From an uncultured bacterium (GTDB taxonomy: Bacteria; Patescibacteriota; Minisyncoccia; UBA6257; 2-01-FULL-56-20): 64,000 nt of DNA. The stretch lies in the NCBI GenBank assembly GCA_963844965.1, contig CAWJQC010000004.1, positions 32,001-96,000 on the forward strand. Direction: 5' to 3'. The first letter of the stretch is position 1. Every line of letters begins with the position of its first letter. The notes beneath the pieces were generated by a model. That model saw only the letters and a list, made by a program, of their open reading frames with translations. It was not told the origin of the DNA and did not search any database. A program made the position numbers and the translations under genes. Shown in pieces: positions 5,241-57,886 of the stretch.

Positions 5241-5309
5241 ATGAACAAAATAATCCTAGAAATCCGGGCTGGAACGGGCTTGCCCGCCATAGCCAAATTT
5301 TATAAATAA
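5241..5309 (+). pseudogene. 22-codon relic or uORF that re-codes the N-terminus of the downstream release factor.
   Basis: [22 protein letters not shown] compared with the downstream [23 protein letters not shown]. Similar protein, different codons. Confidence 0.4.
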
Positions 5310-5337
5310 TTCAAGTACGAAGTGGTGCAACAAAAGC

Positions 5338-6057
5338 ATGACAAATAAAGTTATTTTGGAAATAAGGGCGGGGGCGGGAGGTGACGAAGCCGCTATCTTT
5401 GCGGGCGATCTCGCGCGAATGTACCAACGCTACGCCGCAAGGCGCGGCTGGGGATTCGCGACGCTTGACTCAAACGAAACATCGCTCGGCGGCTATAAAA
5501 CATTTATCGCCGAGATAAAAGGAGAAAATGTTTATGACGCGCTGAAAAACGAATCTGGCGTCCATCGCGTCCAGCGCGTGCCGAAAACCGAGAAATCGGG
5601 ACGTGTACACACCTCAACCGCTTCAGTGGCTGTGATTCCCGAAGTGGAAGCAAAACTGGTTGATGTCAACCCGAACGACTTGGAAGTGACATTTTCTCGC
5701 GCCGGCGGCCCCGGCGGCCAGAACGTCAACAAGGTTGAAACGGCCGTAAGGATCTTGCACAAACCGACCGGCATCGTCGTTTCCTGCCGTGAAGAACGCT
5801 CACAGAACGCCAACCGCGAAAAAGCTCTGGAAATTCTGCGCGCGAAATTATTCGAACTTCAGCGCGAACAAGCAGCCGGCAAAGTAAGCGAAATCCGCCG
5901 CGAACAAATCGGCTCCGCCGAACGCGCGGAAAAGATACGCACATATAATTTCCCAGAAGACAGAATCACCGACCACCGCCTCGGAAAGAAGTTTCACAAC
6001 ATAGAGAAAATTCTTGACGGGGATTTGGAACCGATAGTCAAGGCTTTCCAAAAATAA
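5338..6057 (+). CDS. Class-I peptide chain release factor with domains 2-4 only (GGQ present, PKT tripeptide). N-terminal domain 1 is absent.
   Basis: [17 protein letters not shown]...[19 protein letters not shown]. Only ~210 nt upstream is free, so there is no room for domain 1. Confidence 0.75.
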
Positions 6058-15736: not shown

Positions 15737-16050
15737 ACGATTCTACCGCAAACTGGTTTTTTTTGCGGTTTTGACATGTCCATGTTTCCCAACTCTATCA
15801 CTTTAATTCTATCAGAACAGAGAAAATTATATGCATCTCGGTCTGTCCGATACTAAAACTAGGTGCGGGGAGTAGTGGACGACGTTAGAACCTGTTTGAT
15901 GGAAAATGCCAGCAAATTCAGTATCCCGAGTCTTGTGAGTTAGGTTCCCCCACCCTATCACCCACCATATCTACTCCGGTGGTTGGACGACATAAGGGCC
16001 TGTAAAAAAACCGAACATTCTTATCGCGATCAGCTTTGAGAAATTAACTT

Positions 16051-17106
16051 CTAGTTCCCCATCTTCGGCCCGCTTACGTCGCCATTGTTATTATATCCAG
16101 ACTTTTCCCACGTGCCTTTGTAATTAATATCATCGGACAACTCAATTTTGGTTATCCATTTTATCCATTTGTATCCCCATTTTTGTTCCGCAACAAGCTG
16201 AAACGGGAAGCCTTTTTCTGCCGGAATGACAACGTTATTCATTTTATAGGCCAAGAGAATATTATTATTTTCAATATAATCCAGGGGCAGTGAGGTGGTA
16301 TAACCATCGCTCGCATAAAATATGACAACTTTTGCTTGTGCTTTAATACCGGCCGATTCCAAAAGGTCTTTGACCAAGACCCCTTCCCATAAAATTTTTG
16401 CAGTCCAGCCCTCGACACAATCAAGCTCCACAACCTTAGAATATTTCTGAAAATTTAGAACTTGATCGTAGGTATAACTTTTTGGAGTCTGGACCAAGCC
16501 AGAGATTTCCAATGAGTAATTATCAATGTCTATATATTGAGTTCCTTTAATCGCGTTATCCTGAATATCGGCAATTGATGATAATTTTTCTCCCTGGTAC
16601 TCCTTAACCTGACTATCTGTTAATTGTTTTGTTGCGTAATCAGACGATAATTTAATTCTGATAAAAGAAATGCTTGCGATTCCGGCCAGCACCAAAAAAA
16701 TTATTAAAAACCAAATTTTGGTTCTCAAACCTAAAAATTTATTTTCAGGAGTTGCGTTGAGTGTTTTTTCGGAAACTTTAATTCGGCCCAAGACGATATT
16801 CATCAATGCCAAAACTACTATAATAATACCCGACCAATCATGTGCAAAATTTATCCAAAATAACGGCAAAGGCGCATAGCCAATTACATGATACAATTCC
16901 AAAAACTTAAAAACGCCCGTAATAACCAGTATTGGAACAAAAAATATCAAAACCAGTCGAACAATTTTTCTTAATGCAATCACGCTTTTATTATATCGTT
17001 TCCATCCGAAGTCAACAAAAGCGAAGAGCGTCAAAAAACCACCCCGTGTGCGGAGCGGCGGAAATTTACTCCAACGGGTGGACGGTGTTAGAATATAAAT
17101 CGCCAA
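16051..17106 (-). CDS. Molybdopterin-dependent oxidoreductase (sulfite-oxidase/MsrP-like catalytic domain) fused to an N-terminal multi-TM domain.
   Basis: ELDCVEGWTAKILWEGV...FYASDGYTTSLPL...LLAYKMNNVVIPAEKGFPFQLVAEQKWGYKWIKW. Confidence 0.65.
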   Translation of the reverse strand: MAIYILTPSTRWSKFPPLRTRGGFLTLFAFVDFGWKRYNKSVIALRKIVRLVLIFFVPILVITGVFKFLELYHVIGYAPLPLFWINFAHDWSGIIIVVLALMNIVLGRIKVSEKTLNATPENKFLGLRTKIWFLIIFLVLAGIASISFIRIKLSSDYATKQLTDSQVKEYQGEKLSSIADIQDNAIKGTQYIDIDNYSLEISGLVQTPKSYTYDQVLNFQKYSKVVELDCVEGWTAKILWEGVLVKDLLESAGIKAQAKVVIFYASDGYTTSLPLDYIENNNILLAYKMNNVVIPAEKGFPFQLVAEQKWGYKWIKWITKIELSDDINYKGTWEKSGYNNNGDVSGPKMGN

Positions 17107-48537: not shown

Positions 48538-49740
48538 TTATTTCAGTATCTTAGTCACCGCTCCTGCGCCGACCGTCTTGCCGCCTTCGCGGATGGCAAA
48601 ACGCTGTTTTTCTTCAAGCGCGACCGGGAAATGAGTTTCACGGTGAGTTTAACGGTGTCGCCCGGCATGACCATTTCCATGCCTGCCGGCAAGGGTCACT
48701 TCGCCCGTAACATCGGTCGTCCTGATATAGAACTGCGGCTTGTAGCCGTTGAAGAACGGCGAGTGGCGGCCGCCTTCCTCTTTTGAAAGCACGTAAACCT
48801 CGCGCTCGAATTCCGTGTGCGGCGTGACGCTGCCCGGCTTCGCGACAACCTGCCCGCGCTCCACGTCTTCTTTCTTCAGGCCGCGGAGCAGAACGCCGAC
48901 GTTGTCGCCCGCCATGCCTTCGTCCAAGAGTCTTATTGAACATTTCAATGCCCGTGACGACGGTCTTCTGCCGTCGGCCTGCAGGCCGACGATCTCCACT
49001 TCTTCGTTCACTTTCACCTTGCCGCGCTCCACGCGGCCGGTCACGACCGTGCCGCGTCCTTCAATCGAGAAGATGTCTTCGATCGGCATAAGGAACGGCT
49101 TGTCGAAGTCGCGGACCGGATCGGGAATGAATGTCATCCACCGCTTTGATAAGGTCCAAGATCGGTTTCGCGTCCGGGTCGTCGGCGATTTCGCGGCCAA
49201 CGCTTTCAAAGCCGAACCGCGGATGATCGGAGTCGTGTCGCCCGGGAATTCGTATTTCTTCAAAAGCTCGCGGACTTCGGACTCAACGAGATCAATGAGT
49301 TCCGGATCGTCCACCTGATCGCACTTATTAAGAAACACGACGATGGTCGGCACGCCGACCTGGCGGGCAAGCAAAATGTGCTCGCGCGTCTGCGGCATCG
49401 GGCCGTCGGTCGCGGCGACGACCAAAATCGCGCCGTCCATCTGCGCGGCGCCCGTGATCATGTTCTTGATATAGTCGGCGTGTCCCGGCGCGTCAATGTG
49501 CGCGTAGTGGCGCTTCTCGGATTCGTACTCCGAATGGTGCAGGGCGATCGTGATGCCGCGCGCCTTTTCCTCCGGAGCGTTGTCAATTTGGTCCACTCTC
49601 TCTTCTTTCTTCGTCAGACCCTTCAAATGCAAAACGTGCATAATCGCGGCGGTCAGGGTCGTCTTGCCGTGGTCAACGTGGCCGATCGTGCCGATGTTCA
49701 TGTGCGGCTTGGCCCGGTAGAATTTTTCTTTTTCAGCCAT
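48538..49740 (-). CDS. tuf: Elongation factor Tu, with at least four 1-nt indels (near 49185, 49150, 48690 and 48600).
   Basis: [14 protein letters not shown]...DAPGHADY...NKCD. The C-terminus ...[51 protein letters not shown] can only be reconstructed by switching frames. Confidence 0.85.
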
Positions 49741-50100: not shown

Positions 50101-50904
50101 TCATTTCCCTAGAGCGGAAAACGCCTCGTTGCCGGGATACTTTCTATGAAGGTAATCGTGGATATTAGCTTTGTCATCTGCGGTATATTGGCAGGCGTTT
50201 TTCTTGTCCGTGATTATCTTCAAAATCACGAACCAAACGTCGTCGGCGTACATACCGCCGTCCAGAGCCACCGATTCGAATATTAATTCCCGGCCGCGAT
50301 AGTCGTTGTTCGGAATGCCGAACAGTGTTGTCACCACGGGATGCGACGACGCCCTATAGTTCGTAAGGCCGAGAAGGAATTTCGCGCCACGGTACTTTGA
50401 GGCGGAAGCGACGGCAACGGCGGACTGCAAGGTGTTTTTTGCCGCCCACCACGAGCCGCAGCCATACAACAGAACTGCCTTGGTATATAGAAGATTCGCC
50501 TCTACATACTGATAAAAATCAATCTGCTTGCCGTTTCCTATTTTCTTATCAGCCTTGTTGATGCCCACATCAAGCAGCTTGAAAAAATCCGCGCGCGGGC
50601 CGTCCTCCAATTTAGGCGCGTCCTTTTTTTGTTCGTGCCGAAGCCGGAAAAGCCAGCTCAAAGATAGCCGCAGTTCACCGACGGGATCGTCCGGCTCCAT
50701 TTCCGCGTATTTTCTGAACTTGGCGTCGGCGCAGTTATAATCGCTGTTGTAAAAACAATTCAGGCCCGCCTCAAGCACAGCACGGCTCTCGGGCCTCATC
50801 TCACGGTCCGAGATAGAATCCGCAGAAAAAACCGGGGCAGCCGAACCCGAGAAGAGACACACCGACATAAAAAAGATGAGCATCCTCGTTCTCTTCGCGC
50901 CCAT
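50101..50904 (-). CDS. Secreted hypothetical protein (signal peptide) inserted between fusA and tuf.
   Basis: MGAKRTRMLIFFMSVCLFSGSAAPVFSA.... Confidence 0.45.
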   Translation of the reverse strand: MGAKRTRMLIFFMSVCLFSGSAAPVFSADSISDREMRPESRAVLEAGLNCFYNSDYNCADAKFRKYAEMEPDDPVGELRLSLSWLFRLRHEQKKDAPKLEDGPRADFFKLLDVGINKADKKIGNGKQIDFYQYVEANLLYTKAVLLYGCGSWWAAKNTLQSAVAVASASKYRGAKFLLGLTNYRASSHPVVTTLFGIPNNDYRGRELIFESVALDGGMYADDVWFVILKIITDKKNACQYTADDKANIHDYLHRKYPGNEAFSALGK

Positions 50905-51044: not shown

Positions 51045-53149
51045 TTACCGTTTTTTGCCTTCGATAATCAACTGCGCAATGTTCTGCGGCACTGGCTCAT
51101 AATGGTCAAATTCCATCGTGAACGCTCCCCTGCCTTGCGTCATGGAACGCAACTCGGTCGCGTAGCCGAACATTTCCGCGAGCGGAACTTTGGCGTCAAT
51201 CACTTTCACGTTGGGCCGGTCGGAAATTTCCTCAATCCTGCCGCGCTTGGAGTTCAAGTTGCCGCTCACCTCGCCCAAAAATTCTATCGGGATGATAACC
51301 TGAAGCTTCATTATCGGCTCCAATATGACCGGCTTCGCGCGCTTCGCCGCTTCCTGCAGGGCGATGGAGCCAGCAATTTTGAAAGCCGCCTCCGACGAGT
51401 CAACTTCATGGAAAGAGCCGTCATAGAGCGAAACTTCAAGGTCGGTCATCGGGTAGTGGGCAACGACCCCCTTACTCAATGCTTCCACCACACCTTTTTC
51501 CACCGCCGGGATGAATTCGTTCGGAATGATCCCTCCCTGATATCGTCTATGAAAACAAATCCCTTGCCGCGCTCCAAGGACTTCACGCGCAGCCAGACAT
51601 GTCCGTATTGTCCGCGGCCGCCGGATTGCCTGATATATTTGCCTTCCGCCTCCGCTTCGCCCATAATCGTTTCTTTATAGGCAACCTGCGGCCGCCCCAC
51701 CGAACCCTCAACACCGAACTCCCGCTTCATCCTGTCAACAATAATTTCCAGGTGCAACTCGCCCATGCCAGAAATAATCGTCTCGCCAGTTTCCAGGTCG
51801 CCCGCCACGCGGAAAGTCGGGTCTTCTTCCGCCAAGCGGTGCAGGGCAATGCTCATTTTTTCCTGGTCGGCTTTCGTCTTCGGCTCAATGCGAATGCCGA
51901 TCACCGGCTCGGGGAATATGATCTTCTCAAGCACTATCGGCGCGTCGGGACTGCAAAGCGTGTCGCCGGTCGTCGTATTCTTCAAACCGACGATCGCCGC
52001 GATATCTCCGGCATGCACTTCCTCCATTTCTTCGCGGTGGTTGGCGTGCATCCGCACCACGCGGCCGACACGTTCCTGCTGGTCCTTCTTGGAATTCAAA
52101 ACGTACGTGCCGCGCTTCAAAACGCCGGAATAATTCCGGAAATAGGTTAAAGTGCCGACGTACGGGTCTGTCGCAACCTTGAAAGCCAGCGCCGAGAACG
52201 GCTCTTCGTCCTTGGGGTGCCGCACGATATCGGCGCCGCTCTTCGGGTCAATGCCCTTAACCGGAGGAAGGTCCGTCGGCGCGGGCAAATATTCCACAAC
52301 CGAGTCAAGCATAAATTGCACGCCTTTGTTTTTCAGGGCCGAACCGCAAAGCACCGGCACAATTTTGTTGGCAATAACGGCTTTGCGCAAAACGCGGCGC
52401 AAATCTTCAATGTCAAGCTCAGTACCATCCAAATACTTGGTCATCAAGGCATCGTCATTGTCCACAATGCGTTCCACAAGTTCATGCCGCGCCTTCTTCA
52501 CGTGCACTTTCATATTTTCCGGCATCGGAATTTCTGTAATCTTTTCGCCATGTTCACCCTCCGAGCCGTACGCCTTTTCGGTTAAGAGGTCTATCATTCC
52601 CACGAATTCACCCTCAAGGCCGATGTTCAACTGCAAAGGCAGTGCGTTCGGCGTGAGCCGTTCTTTGATTGACTGCAAACTTTTTTCAAAGCTCGCACCC
52701 AAGCGGTCAAGTTTGTTAATAAAGCAAATCCGCGGCACGTGGTACTCATCGGCATAGCGCCAGTTCGTTTCCGACTGCGGCTCAACACCTGCGACGCCAT
52801 CAAAGACGACAACCGCGCCGTCCAAAACGCGGAGCGAACGCTTCACCTCCACCGTAAAGTCAATGTGCCCCGGCGTGTCAATCAAATTTATCATATGCTC
52901 AAATTTTTTGTCGCCCTTGCGGTAAGTCGGAATCCAGAACGCCGTCGTTGCGGCGGAAGTAATCGTAATTCCCCTCTCACGTTCCTGCTCCATCCAATCC
53001 ATCACCGTGTCGCCCGTGTGCACCTCGCCGATTTTGTGACTGACGCCCGTATAAAAAAGCACCCGTTCGCTCACGGTGGTTTTGCCGGCATCTATATGGG
53101 CGATGATGCCGATGTTACGGACCTTCTCGACAGGATACATTCTAGGCAT
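51045..53149 (-). CDS. fusA: Elongation factor G, with a 1-nt frameshift near 51520 splitting it into two ORFs.
   Basis: [25 protein letters not shown].... The C-terminal ORF 51045-51503 continues ...[27 protein letters not shown]. Confidence 0.85.
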
Positions 53150-53363
53150 TGAATTTGAATAAACTTATTTTAATTCTCGCGCATATTGATGCGGGAAAGG
53201 GGTCGGGAAAACGGGAGTTTTCCCGTATAGGAAAAAGGCCGGAGGCCGAGTTAAAAACCGAGAGGTTTTTAAGGAGCGGGTTGCTGTATAGCGACTCGCG
53301 ACCGTCTATATGCGCGATTATTCCTATATTTCTTACTTTTTCTACTGGATATTGTCGCGGCAT
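53142..53363 (-). pseudogene. Re-coded relic of the EF-G N-terminus (first 20 codons) directly upstream of fusA.
   Basis: [21 protein letters not shown] then nonsense. Different codon usage (AT-rich) from the real fusA start. Confidence 0.45.
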
Positions 53364-53758: not shown

Positions 53759-53886
53759 CGTGGCAAATAATTACCGGGCGAAGTGCGCGAATGCCCTGTT
53801 CGCTTCCGCCCCCGCACCAAAGCTACGCTTGGTACGGGACTCCGCCTCTTCTAAATATCTTAAATTAAGGTGGCTACGCATTCTGT

Positions 53887-54354
53887 TTATCTGGCAAAGT
53901 GTGCAAAGGCACGATTAGCCTCAGCCATCCGGTGCATATCTAACTTCTTTTTGATTGCCGCGCCTTCATTCTTGGAAGCGGCAATGATTTCTTCCGCCAA
54001 TTTGTCGGCCATGGGCTTGCCTTTGCGGCTGCGCGCAGTGCCGATTATCCAGCGGATTGCCAAAATAAACCTGCGTTCGGGGCGCACTTCAATCGGCACT
54101 TGATAGTTCGCGCCGCCGACCCGCCGCGATTTCACCTCCAATAAAGGCGAGGCGTTTTCAACGGCTTTCTCAAAAACCTTCAGGGAATCTTCTTTCGTGA
54201 TTTCTTTCACTTTATCAAACGCGTCATAGACAATTTTTTCGGCAATTGATTTCTTGCCGTCGCGCATCACGTAATTAATAAAACGCTCCACGTCTATGCG
54301 CTCATGCTTTATGTCCGGCTTGTGATATTTTTTGTAAACTCGTTTTTTGCGCAT
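53887..54354 (-). CDS. rpsG: 30S ribosomal protein S7.
   Basis: ...[19 protein letters not shown].... Confidence 0.85.
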
Positions 54355-55829: not shown

Positions 55830-55902
55830 GTCCCTGTAGCTCAACGGATAGAGCGTGTGGCTTCGAACCACAAGGTTGCAGGTTCAAATCCTGCCAGGGA
55901 CG
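55830..55902 (+). tRNA. tRNA-Arg (UCG).
   Basis: GTCCCTGTAGCTCAACGGATAGAGCGTGTGGCTTCGAACCACAAGGTTGCAGGTTCAAATCCTGCCAGGGACG. Confidence 0.85.
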
Positions 55903-55928
55903 CAAAGGTGGGAGGGTGAAGATATCAT

Positions 55929-55978
55929 ATGTGGCTTCGAACCACAGGTTCCAGGTTCGAGTCCTGGCGAGGGCACAC
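55929..55978 (+). other. 5'-truncated copy of a tRNA-Arg(UCG) paralog (anticodon arm + T-arm + acceptor 3' strand). Candidate att site.
   Basis: The 17-nt tgtggcttcgaaccaca is identical to the intact gene. The T-arm/acceptor is ccaggttcgagtcctggcgagggca. Confidence 0.6.
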
Positions 55979-56072
55979 ACAACATTTCGTATCGCGGCAT
56001 CGTGGGGGCCGACGCTCTAGCGCGACCCCGAGAGGCCTACCGATACGGAATATCGTCCTCCTTATTTCTCTA

Positions 56073-56324
56073 TTAAGAGCCGGCAAAAATACTTTTGATA
56101 AGGCTTGTAATGCCGCCTGCTATCAGCACGATCACAAAACCGACTGCCGCATACGTAAGGGTCTTCTTCCCTTTCGAAAATTTTTCAGGATCGCCAGCCG
56201 CCGTCATCATTTGAAACCCGCCGACAAGCACCATTATACTTGTGAGCGGCGCTGCAATATCGTAAAAAAGAAATCCCGCCACACTATTCGCGACGGACAC
56301 CAAGCTGCCCCCCCATTCGTACAA
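56073..56324 (-). CDS. Small 2-TM membrane protein (pilin/TrbC-like is speculative).
   Basis: 83-aa ORF with two hydrophobic helices. Confidence 0.35.
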   Translation of the reverse strand: MYEWGGSLVSVANSVAGFLFYDIAAPLTSIMVLVGGFQMMTAAGDPEKFSKGKKTLTYAAVGFVIVLIAGGITSLIKSIFAGS

Positions 56325-56491
56325 TTTGGATCGAACGGATTAAAAAGTTGGTTGGGAGGGCACGCGGCAAAAGCTAACTTCGCGACGGTTAAGGCGCTGA
56401 CTGTTATTAAAATCTTTGTTGTGCGGCGGATAATATGCATATGGATTATTATAGCATACGAGATAGCGTGGCAGAAGCCCATTTTGTTTAG

Positions 56492-57886
56492 CTATTTCTG
56501 CAAGCTCAGAATTTTATTCCTGAACGTCAACTTACTCTTGAAGCAAGATAGCAATTCGCGTTTCTCGACCGTGCTGCCCTTTTTGAGAAGATATTTTGCG
56601 TACGTTTTAAGGTCAATTTCTTTAGTGGCCGCTTTCGATCCTTCTCCCAAGACATCGTTCGCGAATTTGCGATATCGTTCCATCTCGTCTTCGAATTTCT
56701 TCTGCATCCCAATCTCACTGATATCCATCTCGTCAATGATAGCGAGAAGTTGAGCGATCAATTCCTCTTCGCGAATGTATCCGCACTTGCAATCCTTATC
56801 TTTCGAGCGTGAGCATCCATAGTACACGTACCGCGCCGTCGTTCCATCCTTGTGCGCCTTATATTTCTCGCACGCACTGATGCCCGATCCGCATAGGCCG
56901 CACGAGATCAGTTTCGTAAACGAAAATTCCTTTATCTCCGACCTGATGACAAAATCTCGGTGCAGCTGCTCCTGTACTTTATCGAACAGCTCCCGCGAAA
57001 TGATTGCTTCGTGCTTGCCGCTGTACCAGTTACCGCTCTTCAGTGGATACTCAAAGATGCCGCAGTAAAATGGATTTTTGAGGATGATATAAATATTGGA
57101 TAACGAAAGCACTTTCCCATTCTTTGTTCTGAATTTGATTTCCGACTTCAGCCAATGATAAAGCTTCCGGCCCGACCATTGTTCGTCGGCGACTTTCTGG
57201 AGCATTTGCTTGATGACGGGCGCTCGCAGGGGATCAATGATAACTTCACAAGGACGGTCGGTGCTCTTCTCGTTAAGATACCCTGTCGGTGCGATAGACG
57301 GACGCAAACCTTGTTCGCACCGCATCCGTAATCCGCGCTTCACGTTTTCCGATTTGTTATCATTCTCAAGTTTCGCTTGGCTGCACAAAATCATCAACAT
57401 GAATTTCTCGCTCGGCGAGTTCGTGAATTTCTGGCTGAAGGTTCTGATCTCGATAAGTAATTTTTGATCCATCAAGTCCACCAAGCCGCCAAGGTCGCCC
57501 GCGTTGCGGCTCAAGCGATCCGGCGCCCATGTAAGGATACCGTTGAATTCGCCGGAACGAATATCAATAAGCAACTCGTTAAAAATTTTTCGCTGGCCGA
57601 CAGCTTTTGCGGAATGGCTTTCCTTTCTAACTTCGGCGATCTCAAGGTTATCGCGCTCGGCGATTTTCAGCATCTCCTTTATCTGACTATCAATGGAAAG
57701 CACTTGCTGTTCCTCGCTCTCCGTACTTTTCCTCGCATAGAGGCAGTATTTTATTTTTATCGCTTCGGCCTTTGTCGCAGAAACGCCCGACTGATCCCAG
57801 CCCTTTGGTATATTTGTTATTTTCTCCATACCTAAGGGATGCCGCAACGGCGGAAGGAGTCCAGAGCATCCTTGTCGGTAACTCAA
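56492..57886 (-). CDS. Large serine recombinase (resolvase domain + recombinase domain + zinc ribbon).
   Basis: YARKSTESEEQ...SIDSQ catalytic region. C-terminal CGLCGS...YYGC. Confidence 0.8.
   Translation of the reverse strand: MSYRQGCSGLLPPLRHPLGMEKITNIPKGWDQSGVSATKAEAIKIKYCLYARKSTESEEQQVLSIDSQIKEMLKIAERDNLEIAEVRKESHSAKAVGQRKIFNELLIDIRSGEFNGILTWAPDRLSRNAGDLGGLVDLMDQKLLIEIRTFSQKFTNSPSEKFMLMILCSQAKLENDNKSENVKRGLRMRCEQGLRPSIAPTGYLNEKSTDRPCEVIIDPLRAPVIKQMLQKVADEQWSGRKLYHWLKSEIKFRTKNGKVLSLSNIYIILKNPFYCGIFEYPLKSGNWYSGKHEAIISRELFDKVQEQLHRDFVIRSEIKEFSFTKLISCGLCGSGISACEKYKAHKDGTTARYVYYGCSRSKDKDCKCGYIREEELIAQLLAIIDEMDISEIGMQKKFEDEMERYRKFANDVLGEGSKAATKEIDLKTYAKYLLKKGSTVEKRELLSCFKSKLTFRNKILSLQK

Follow-up and report, generated by a model that had tools for sequence, protein, structure and literature searches.

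The working fusA gene in the window, the whole 64,000-nt stretch of DNA that was analysed, is preceded by a short fragment of a second fusA allele that encodes nearly the same residues in different codons. We propose, with a probability of roughly 55%, that this fragment (the EF-G stub) is the scar of a homology-anchored recombination between diverged alleles. The features of the rpsG–fusA junction are, in window coordinates:

53887..54354, minus strand: working rpsG (ribosomal protein S7), from the ORF call and an independent contig
53810..53886, minus strand: 77-nt insert from the working rpsG stop to the S7 stub, with a terminal hairpin of -18.8 kcal/mol against the stub
53771..53809, minus strand: rpsG (S7) stub, the last 12 codons of a second allele plus stop, from similarity and collinearity with the relative L082
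53372..53758, minus strand: ORF128, in an uncharacterised family of small proteins whose C-termini carry the motif GGTGLPEVE, assigned by family comparison across relatives
53304..53363, minus strand: EF-G stub, the start codon and codons 2-20 of a second fusA allele, from similarity to working fusA and collinearity with L082 fusA nt 1-59
53150..53303, minus strand: 154-nt insert, the present leader of working fusA, from structure and similarity searches; it contains, for example, CGGGAAAACTCCCGTTTTCCCG
53142..53363, minus strand: 73-codon ORF, starting at 53363, formed by the EF-G stub read on through the 154-nt insert
51045..53149, minus strand: working fusA (EF-G, all domains present), from the ORF call and a domain search

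A fragment of a second fusA allele precedes the working gene

The EF-G stub is truly part of a second fusA allele, one that uses different codons. Its 20 codons match EF-G residues 1-20 at 19/20 amino acids and 70% DNA identity, and similarity to fusA breaks off sharply past codon 20-21, as the original prediction had described for an upstream ORF with an EF-G-like N-terminus that then degenerates. The AT-rich synonymous recoding noted there was equally evident: GC3 is 0.25 in the stub vs 0.60 in the first 20 codons of working fusA, and the 18 nucleotide differences between the two fall 3/1/14 on the three codon positions (binomial P = 1.4e-4). Because these differences are almost all synonymous, the stub represents an allele that once evolved as a working coding sequence. 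When all window ORFs were compared with the window by tblastn, the stub/fusA pair was the sole significant non-self match (E = 2.4e-7), and a repeat search returned the EF-G stub and the fusA start as a 64-nt direct repeat (70% identity, 214-nt spacing). The stub begins 8 nt past the ORF128 stop, the position taken by the fusA start in the stub-free relative L082. The 73-codon ORF that it opens ends at a TAG (53144-53142) overlapping the fusA start region (AATGCCTAG); on exact database look-up, this 73-aa ORF was not on record.

Working fusA is read in two frames, with one G absent from a GGGG run near 51530, and the missing G is probably a consensus error. Homopolymer indels are carried by both fusA and tuf of the window. 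An exact database look-up of the 557-aa EF-G fragment found it not on record.

The same arrangement is present in an independent short-read assembly, Logan contig L081 (1353 nt), which is 100% identical to window 54549-53197, a match that takes in rpsG, both stubs with ORF128 between them, and 106 nt of the 154-nt insert. Because this contig is identical across it, the EF-G stub is not an assembly artefact. The homopolymer indels of fusA and tuf do suggest consensus problems in conserved genes. However, it is extremely improbable that two populations were chimerically joined inside a conserved region, given the identity of the Logan contig over both stubs, the lack of any exact run >8 nt between the copies that could mislead an assembler, and the presence of the same architecture in many unrelated assemblies.

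A mirror-image stub lies on the other side of ORF128

The rpsG 3'-end stub is the mirror image of the EF-G stub, on the other side of ORF128. It ends 12 nt ahead of the ORF128 start, which is the native end position of rpsG. Each stub has a stable hairpin directly against it, formed on the strand that has its 3' end directed away from the working gene. The two stubs are flanked by the working copies: fusA, preceded by its 154-nt leader, on one side, and the 3' end of rpsG, followed by its 77-nt trailer, on the other. The block formed by the S7 stub, ORF128 and the EF-G stub (window 53810-53305) gave by blastn one collinear match, at 81%, to L082 1114-1619. In L082, rpsG, ORF131 and fusA are contiguous and stub-free.

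Members of the ORF128 family lie between rpsG and fusA in L082, L083, L206/L207 and L208, that is, in lineages down to 69% EF-G identity. Because the family is syntenic in such distant lineages and its divergence scales with that of S7, ORF128 appears to be an old resident of the rpsG-fusA junction. We also rejected the idea that ORF128 encodes a homing nuclease or is carried as mobile cargo: family and fold searches gave no match, and its small-protein family is syntenic. L204 and L205, the nearest relatives by EF-G, are without ORF128; thus, potential donors that lack it exist. EF-G, S7 and ORF267 of the window are closer to L204/L205 than to L082, and ORF128 is common to the window and L082 at 80%. 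Its GC3 is low in both genomes (0.46 and 0.42 vs a background of 0.55-0.65), and its pS of 0.50 (95% interval 0.38-0.64) lies at the low end of synonymous divergence. In L204 the same rpsG-fusA junction is taken by another small gene, a PD-(D/E)XK family member.

The EF-G stub ends at the first long block of identity

Where along fusA does the stub end? With L082 fusA as a proxy for the resident allele, every exact run shared with window fusA before nt 55 is <=8 nt, and the first 17-nt identical block spans nt 55-71 (P-loop codons). The EF-G stub ends at nt 59-61, at the edge of this block. Between the stub and working fusA, the longest exact in-register run is 8 nt.

Synonymous sites are saturated in all pairs among the available relatives (pS 0.50-0.73). 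We tried to date blocks with third-position identity and Nei-Gojobori dS, and in a sliding comparison along fusA no ancestry switch was visible, synonymous sites being saturated. At such saturation the comparisons with the available relatives give no measure of any replaced tract and no sign of which side was the newcomer. The xenologous displacement put forward in the original prediction therefore stands in part: a second-allele fragment does occupy the native start, but replacement of the whole gene by a xenolog is not established. Two further candidates were rejected. An anomalous divergence of fusA from L082 (51% vs 62-72%) did not hold, L204/L205 showing EF-G equally low in every pair, nor did a special re-spelling of the working fusA 5' end, whose identity to relatives is within the background range.

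The insert is a structured leader containing a third, inverted fusA fragment

The 154-nt insert places a hairpin directly against the stub, followed by three more hairpins, an AT-rich tail and the fusA ATG. Folding of the leader is much stronger than that of shuffled controls (z = -4.2), and the hairpin at the EF-G stub junction reaches -17.2 kcal/mol (antisense strand). An Rfam search of the leader and four related loci returned nothing relevant, and the sole ORF of the insert had no Pfam match. No second copy of the window inserts was found in the 64-kb window, and a search for the 154-nt insert in the rpsG-fusA spacers of relatives returned only antisense matches to fusA itself. Stop codons number 0 in the frame of the stub ORF vs 1 and 3 in the other two frames of the insert; the stub-ORF frame is also open in 10% of shuffled inserts. 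Within the insert we found a further piece of fusA:

53172..53206, plus strand: inverted fragment of a third fusA allele, reading ILAHIDAGKG; inverted repeat I1

This fragment contains a 22-nt, 95% antisense match to L008 fusA. At the RNA level it is predicted to pair with the stub or with fusA codons 14-22 (-22.4 vs -21.7 kcal/mol), in an insert seen in one lineage.

About 3 kb from the insert lies a serine recombinase (56492-57886) associated with a tRNA-Arg site. A Pfam scan of the neighbouring ORFs contained no reverse transcriptase. We rejected a diversity-generating retroelement as the source of the stub: 12/18 differing sites are A in the stub and 6 are not, the changes are synonymous third-position ones, and no reverse transcriptase is nearby. 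Attachment-site duplication by an integrated element was also rejected, the copies having no shared core (longest run 8 nt) and no element between them.

Stubs recur at the ends of other genes and in relatives

The window holds a comparable arrangement at a release-factor (RF) gene:

5241-5279, plus strand: RF stub, 13 codons, from similarity to the RF gene start
5241..5337, plus strand: RF stub and 58-nt insert, ahead of the working gene start at 5338

This stub, reported with the original prediction, is real: 10/12 aligned residues are identical to those of the gene and the differences fall 4/0/8 by codon position. The process suspected from the two loci does recur, at fusA, the RF gene, rpsG and other genes, in the window genome and in relatives. 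In comparisons that included a position-constrained stub scan, we found the architecture at fusA ends in 7/~47 CPR loci. N-terminal fusA stubs were found in L001, L021, L028 and L083, the last with a 32-codon stub and a different insert, and C-terminal ones in L026, L028, L033 and L034; L209 has a release-factor stub. Metagenome contigs added stubs at four other gene types, assigned by reading end peptides (tsaD-like, ribosomal protein L16, response-regulator and HtpX-like). When 12 N-terminal cases were pooled, differences fell 24/10/95 by codon position, with 160/172 residues identical (P = 1e-20). Both copies thus evolved as working genes, unlike what would be expected of a local duplicate under neutral drift.

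Stub copies always start at the start codon or end at the stop codon. They measure 9-32 codons, and the inserts of different cases are unrelated in sequence. Cargo-free cases are those at L001, L021, the RF loci, the tsaD-like gene and L16. L180 carries a perfect 43-nt duplicate. The stub ORF of five fusA N-terminal cases terminates no more than 18 nt ahead of the real AUG or, as in the window, overlaps it, and that of L164 and L199 ends 53-79 nt upstream of the real start.

Many stub junctions in relatives carry a GTAG-type REP hairpin (L026, L028, L033, L034, L209 and metagenome contigs), in a fixed layout of stub, hairpin, box AGAAGYGGT, AT-rich spacer and full gene. The GTAG palindrome is dispersed over at least 120 metagenome stretches, and L026 and L034 contain tandem arrays of units. 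Neither the GTAG-REP motif nor generic GTAG palindromes had a match in the 64-kb window. The window inserts were rejected as GTAG-REP members; the apparent box match in the RF insert (GAAGTGGT) is no better than expected by chance, the window having 9 near-matches.

A model for the origin of the stubs

What process leaves one gene end beside another? If the EF-G stub is a recombination scar, DNA of an ORF128-less relative would have recombined into the window lineage. The earliest place where pairing could have started is the 17-nt identical block over the P-loop codons (nt 55-71), which would leave as an unpaired donor tail the donor's own first 20 codons and its leader. This tail may have been trimmed back just to its stable terminal hairpin and then ligated in instead of removed, and because it was ligated in, the recipient's first 20 codons would have survived as the stub. 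The process would be homology-facilitated illegitimate recombination (HFIR) or a close variant, and the rpsG stub would reflect the same process acting from the other side. Several observations sit uneasily with this model. Stubs on both sides of ORF128 require two separate events, and a single block import requires one; the inverted third-allele fragment is not predicted by a simple one-sided event; the perfect duplicate of L180 could equally be a local duplication; and our search for a donor lineage with the 154-nt insert upstream of fusA found none.

The EF-G stub is probably translated as the 73-codon upstream ORF because its native start context is kept. With its stop on the fusA AUG, this ORF would hand ribosomes to fusA and melt the structured leader. 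We regard such ribosome delivery as a likely by-product and not the reason for the existence of the stub.

The polarity of the exchange could also be the reverse, which we consider unlikely. The ~510-nt block of S7 stub, ORF128 and EF-G stub would then be the imported DNA, cut from an L082-like genome and end-joined into an existing 231-nt rpsG-fusA spacer, with the stubs as hitchhikers. One event would suffice instead of two, and earlier insertions of such blocks, in one orientation or the other, would be in keeping with the inverted third-allele fragment. The affinity of window EF-G, S7 and ORF267 to the ORF128-less L204/L205, set beside an ORF128 shared with L082, is in keeping with such an import, as are the low GC3 and low-end pS of ORF128 and the different small gene of L204 at the same junction. 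However, the synteny of the ORF128 family in distant lineages and its scaling with S7 are as expected from vertical descent, this reading does not say why the block should enter that particular spacer, and two illegitimate joints would be needed without a homologous anchor. Block import also leaves the cargo-free stubs unexplained and does not predict a stub ending at the first long identity block. We find it improbable, with small weight, that a small mobile REP- or MITE-like hairpin element inserts into gene ends, either making a long target duplication or using as its homing arm a duplicate of the conserved end codons. The two copies would then diverge, or the element would move between genomes with its arm. 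The junction in relatives is very often a GTAG-tagged palindrome in a fixed layout, dispersed and of a described REP class (PMC3733652), and the L180 duplicate and the tandem arrays of L026 and L034 would suit an element of this kind. Yet the window is without that REP family, its inserts are single-copy in 64 kb, and no transposase is linked to any case. Moreover, a copy made in place cannot account for peptides that are conserved although synonymous sites are saturated, and copies that always run from a start codon or to a stop codon are unlike mechanical target duplication.

Might the stub ORF and the antisense segment instead be a selected regulatory leader, in which uORF translation and mutually exclusive antisense pairing (with the stub or with fusA codons 14-22) tune EF-G synthesis? 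The fold of the leader, the near-equal pairing energies, the ORF open through the insert with its stop on the fusA AUG, and the five fusA cases with stops close to or overlapping the AUG are all compatible with this. We nevertheless hold it to be very improbable: the closest relatives, L082, L204 and L205, are without stub or leader, the inserts are unrelated between cases, one shuffled insert in ten is open in frame, and the stub ORFs of L164 and L199 end well before the real start. Nothing in these comparisons points to the stub ORF as a conserved regulator. The decoy uORF of the original prediction likewise lacks comparative support, the uORF being absent from the same three relatives and other stub ORFs ending 53-79 nt early. 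A tentative and rather unlikely proposal is that the stubs are footprints of an undescribed, dedicated CPR process. This might be a hairpin-ended homing element that uses differently spelled end codons as its arm and is moved by a REP-associated nuclease or as a mini-circle; possibly, a transformation or repair pathway routinely joins hairpin-capped donor tails instead of trimming them. If so, essential translation genes would receive new heads and tails time and again, and stub ORFs could become coupling leaders.

Implications

CPR bacteria are mostly uncultured and ultra-small, and their DNA exchange is known largely by inference. Read as scars, the stubs record, in a form that can be read and dated, how diverged lineages have recombined within essential translation genes. 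Every stub keeps a piece of one allele and marks the point at which it started to pair with the other. Should the link to hairpins be borne out, it would show the processing of non-homologous donor tails in CPR bacteria, and a signature of gene-end stub, hairpin, AT-rich spacer and full gene could be counted over thousands of genomes. For annotation, stubs yield spurious small ORFs and can cause mis-called starts in essential genes.

Comparison with known systems

GTAG-tagged REPs and RAYT transposases have been described, and REPs that abut or overlap ORF ends were noted; gene-end duplication beside REPs is unmentioned there (PMC3733652). The stub-junction hairpin of relatives is a GTAG...CTAC palindrome of this class, but the window is without any copy of that family. 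Like uORFs, leader peptides and translational coupling, the EF-G stub provides a short ORF before an essential gene, a stop overlapping the start codon and alternative leader pairings. Unlike them, its peptide copies the N-terminus of the downstream protein itself, and the nearest relatives are without this leader.

Integrative elements such as islands and prophages insert at a gene end, 3' or 5', and bring a replacement for it. The stubs resemble the att-site duplications that result, with a displaced gene end beside a complete gene and copies that differ while encoding the same residues. In contrast to such elements, the intervening DNA here is just 77-154 nt and non-coding, no identical core exceeds 8 nt and no integrase flanks the insert, the nearest serine recombinase being ~3 kb off.

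HFIR has been described experimentally in naturally transformable bacteria, for example Acinetobacter and Streptococcus pneumoniae. One homologous anchor and a non-homologous tail joined illegitimately add foreign DNA beside the replaced segment; the illegitimate joint would be expected to fall at a short microhomology between the donor tail and the recipient. A search of the literature on HFIR remnants and on CPR fusA duplication found nothing specific. The proposed likeness is that the fusA junction falls at the edge of the first long block of identity between the alleles. Unlike in HFIR, what is left here is not a simple addition or deletion: a gene end of 9-32 codons in a different spelling has been kept as a stub, the joint adjoins a stable hairpin, and the scars are found in the natural genomes of uncultured CPR bacteria, where they recur at the same essential genes.

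Re-spelled gene ends at the rpsG-fusA junction

At the rpsG-fusA junction, short and differently spelled copies of gene ends (stubs) lie beside the full working genes, on either side of ORF128, a small-protein gene.

Features of the rpsG-fusA junction in the window
54848-54438, minus strand: rpsL
54354-53887, minus strand: rpsG
53886-53810, minus strand: 77-nt insert
53809-53771, minus strand: copy of the 12 terminal rpsG codons and a stop (S7 stub)
53758-53372, minus strand: ORF128
53363-53142, minus strand: 73-codon ORF carrying the EF-G stub, starting 8 nt after the ORF128 stop
53149-51045, minus strand: working fusA

Over 20 codons, the EF-G stub and the fusA start share 19 identical residues at 70% DNA identity, and the 18 nucleotide differences are distributed 3/1/14 over the codon positions. 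When every ORF of the window was compared with the window, this pair was the only significant non-self match (E = 2.4e-7). The third positions of the stub are AT-rich, with a GC3 of 0.25 vs 0.60 in the working copy. The original prediction, an EF-G relic with AT-rich synonymous codons whose GC3 was to be compared with that of the downstream gene, is thus borne out. The S7 stub with its insert (53771-53886, minus strand) is a third stub in the window, absent from that prediction. It lies 116 nt beyond the genuine rpsG stop and is spelled differently from the working rpsG end (67% DNA identity); the 77-nt insert that precedes it ends in a hairpin.

A 154-nt insert separates the EF-G stub from fusA. 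Its first hairpin directly abuts the stub and is followed by three further hairpins and an AT-rich stretch up to the fusA ATG. The region folds far better than shuffled sequence (z = -4.2), matched no family in an Rfam search and has no second copy in the window. Near its 3′ end, an inverted fragment of a fusA allele reads ILAHIDAGKG on the plus strand (53177-53206, within segment 53172-53206) and is antisense to the fusA of L008 (95% over 22 nt); it is a piece of a third fusA allele. For this fragment as RNA, the stub (-22.4 kcal/mol) and fusA codons 14-22 (-21.7 kcal/mol) are about equally good predicted pairing partners.

Several other features surround the junction. ORF267 (50101-50904), without a family match, lies between fusA and tuf; its homologues at that position in two relatives are very diverged (29% identity in L082, 41% in L204). 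On the other side, a tRNA-Arg (55830-55903) and a partial second tRNA copy (55915-55967) are followed by genes encoding a pilin-like protein of conjugal transfer (56073-56324) and a serine recombinase of the large type (56492-57886), so that 55830-57886 looks like an integrated mobile element adjoining the str operon. Elsewhere, a low-GC island (16001-17000, GC 0.36 vs ~0.50) contains a 351-aa ORF (16051-17106, GC3 0.39) that adjoins a tRNA-Trp.

The stub is not an assembly artefact

An independently assembled Logan contig, L081, is 100% identical to window 54549-53197, a match that takes in rpsG, ORF128 with the stub on each side of it, and 106 nt of the 154-nt insert. Moreover, the longest exact run common to the two fusA copies is at most 8 nt. 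Both observations contradict an assembly duplication, the alternative named in the original prediction; the stub is not an artefact. The working genes themselves contain small defects: fusA is read in two frames because one G is absent from a GGGG run at ~51530, and tuf is broken at least twice by small indels in short homopolymer runs (~48560-48700), unlike a 1065-aa ORF elsewhere in the window, which is intact. These single-base indels probably reflect consensus errors that cluster in strongly conserved genes, real decay being the alternative, and fusA is probably intact in the organism.

ORF128 looks like an old resident of the junction

The window belongs to a Patescibacteria (CPR) bacterium placed close to the Liptonbacteria/Paceibacterota. 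In the stub-free relative L082, rpsG, ORF131 (80% identical to ORF128) and an intact 701-aa fusA follow each other with spacers of a few to ~12 nt. Window 53810-53305, comprising the S7 stub, ORF128 and the EF-G stub, forms one uninterrupted 81% match to L082 1114-1619, and the rpsG and fusA of L082 are matched a second time by the working rpsG and fusA of the window. Therefore, the stubs lie exactly at the rpsG end and fusA start of the simple arrangement. In another relative, L083, a 32-codon EF-G stub and then an unrelated 86-nt hairpin insert stand between an ORF128-like gene and fusA; with its different breakpoint, this stub is an independent event.

Neither Pfam nor NCBIfam assigns ORF128 to a family, and no solved fold matches it significantly. 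A profile search recovered 275 cluster representatives of an uncharacterised, predicted helical family of ~105-135 aa with a conserved C-terminal GGTGLP(E/D)(V/I)E. Distant members (47-50% identical) occupy the rpsG-fusA junction of L206/L207 and L208 as well, lineages whose S7 and EF-G are 79% and 69% identical to those of the window, and ORF128 divergence roughly tracks that of S7. This synteny and scaling make ORF128 look like an old resident of the junction, and the position of its family in several CPR lineages could hint at a translation-related role. The two closest EF-G relatives lack the family, a PD-(D/E)XK-family gene (L204, EF-G 92% identical) or a 38-nt spacer (L205, 89%) taking its place, and so do the 47 best-matching (nearly all CPR) of 80 species-representative loci fetched. 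Relatives with and without ORF128 thus provide heterology exactly at the stub sites. The PD-(D/E)XK gene (PF13366; L204 5540-6000) is flanked by inverted TACGAAT-type repeats, and similar repeats occur in the L001 spacer.

Stubs recur at other genes

We scanned for stubs running from a start codon, aligned with residue 1 of the gene, or up to a stop codon, aligned with its last residue. Among the species-representative loci, fusA has N-terminal stubs in L001, L021 and L028 and C-terminal stubs in L026, L028, L033 and L034; the count is given as 7/47 best-matching loci, nearly all labelled CPR, and is 0 in the remaining 33 of 80. The C-terminal stubs of L026, L033 and L034 are tandem units of end codons plus stop, AT-rich spacer and CCACYTCNCGCCCCGTAG-hairpin-CTACYGGGG, a motif that in L028 follows the N-terminal stub in reverse. 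These arrays lie downstream of fusA (L026 7095-7370, L034 7098-7400, L033 7110-7280) and hold two to three units, each with the last 10-14 EF-G codons and a GTAG-REP hairpin; coding parts differ at third positions only, hairpins are nearly identical, and one L034 stub is interrupted by another hairpin. The junction motif belongs to a class of GTAG-tagged REPs that has been described (PMC3733652).

A metagenome scan for this motif returned at least 120 stretches. Motif-bearing stubs belonged to two tsaD-like genes, two ribosomal protein L16 genes, one response regulator (a perfect 43-nt duplicate) and one HtpX-like C-terminus, identities read from end peptides rather than from a domain search. 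Their common layout is stub, hairpin, AGAAGYGGT, AT-rich spacer and full gene. In these cases the native position is taken up by the stub, which in L021 starts 10 nt past rpsG and in L199 16 nt past the S3 gene. The release-factor locus has a 13-codon stub in the window, a 14-codon stub followed by a GTAG-type hairpin in L209/L210 (same genome as L205) and none in L211; the same promoter-like box precedes the first release-factor start in all three. The recurring pattern of the original prediction, which already named the release factor, is thus real and more general, covering rpsG in the window and fusA and other genes in relatives and metagenomes. A 322-aa reverse-transcriptase gene (RVT_1; L209 3242-4210) lies directly downstream of the stub-bearing release-factor gene. 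The release factor of the window (5338-6057) is RF1-like, 239 aa, without N-terminal domain and matched by the PCRF profile only from position 100; since it is also ~240 aa in thousands of CPR relatives, this is the normal clade form.

Origin of the stubs

What is the origin of the stubs? In 12 pooled N-terminal cases, 160/172 stub residues match the working protein, and the 129 nucleotide differences are distributed 24/10/95 over the codon positions (P = 1e-20), with third positions near saturation. A local duplicate drifting unconstrained would have gained many first- and second-position changes in that time; the copies therefore diverged while both were functional. Judging from this pattern, stub and working copy must have diverged in separate lineages and been joined by recombination, young cases such as that of locus L180 excepted.

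The first 54 nt of fusA contain no exact run >8 nt between the window and L082. Long identity first appears at nt 55-71 (ATAGATGCCGGCAAAAC, P-loop codons), and nt 59-61 is where the stub ends. At each of the two window junctions, a stable hairpin (-17.2 and -18.8 kcal/mol) has its 3′ end directly against the stub, on the strand pointing away from the working gene. The block edge and abutting hairpins fit homology-anchored recombination: pairing would start at the first usable identity block, leaving unpaired a donor tail of the donor's own end codons and flanking spacer, which would be trimmed to a stable hairpin and joined in, so that the recipient's end codons survive as a stub. Such anchoring would explain similar break codons in independent events of one gene. 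These shared breakpoints lie just before GGDEA (release factor), at codons 11-12 (tsaD-like) and at codon 9 (L16).

Which side was the newcomer? Three points make us prefer the working ends of fusA and rpsG: the synteny of ORF128, the logic of the anchor, and the large number of stubs that carry no cargo gene. Import of the ORF128-plus-stubs block is less preferred; it would take a single event where the other reading needs two, and the genes on either flank are a little closer to ORF128-less genomes. No donor with the 154-nt insert was found. With a pS of 0.50-0.73 between the window, L082, L204 and L205, synonymous sites are saturated, so a recombination tract is not demonstrable. An apparent excess of fusA divergence from L082 was rejected as a signal, since it occurs in every pair and is hence a property of the gene. 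Of the xenologous displacement originally proposed, the two differently evolved fusA alleles stand, and import of the working fusA would be the preferred reading.

The stub is probably translated, since its native start context is kept. Its ORF stays open throughout the insert, as in 10% of shuffled inserts, and its stop and the fusA start overlap (AATGCCTAG); ribosomes terminating at the fusA AUG could plausibly re-initiate there and open the structured leader. There is no sign that such coupling is under selection: the leader is missing from the closest relatives, inserts vary from case to case, and a number of stub ORFs stop long before the genuine start. The decoy upstream ORFs first suggested likewise have no comparative support.

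Gene-end scars recur in CPR bacteria, and REP-type hairpins often bound them; the paper on the GTAG-tagged class does not mention gene-end duplication (PMC3733652). They would be of considerably greater interest if a dedicated element or repair pathway lay behind them. As a natural variant of a type of event already known, the finding is most aptly called a gene-end recombination scar.
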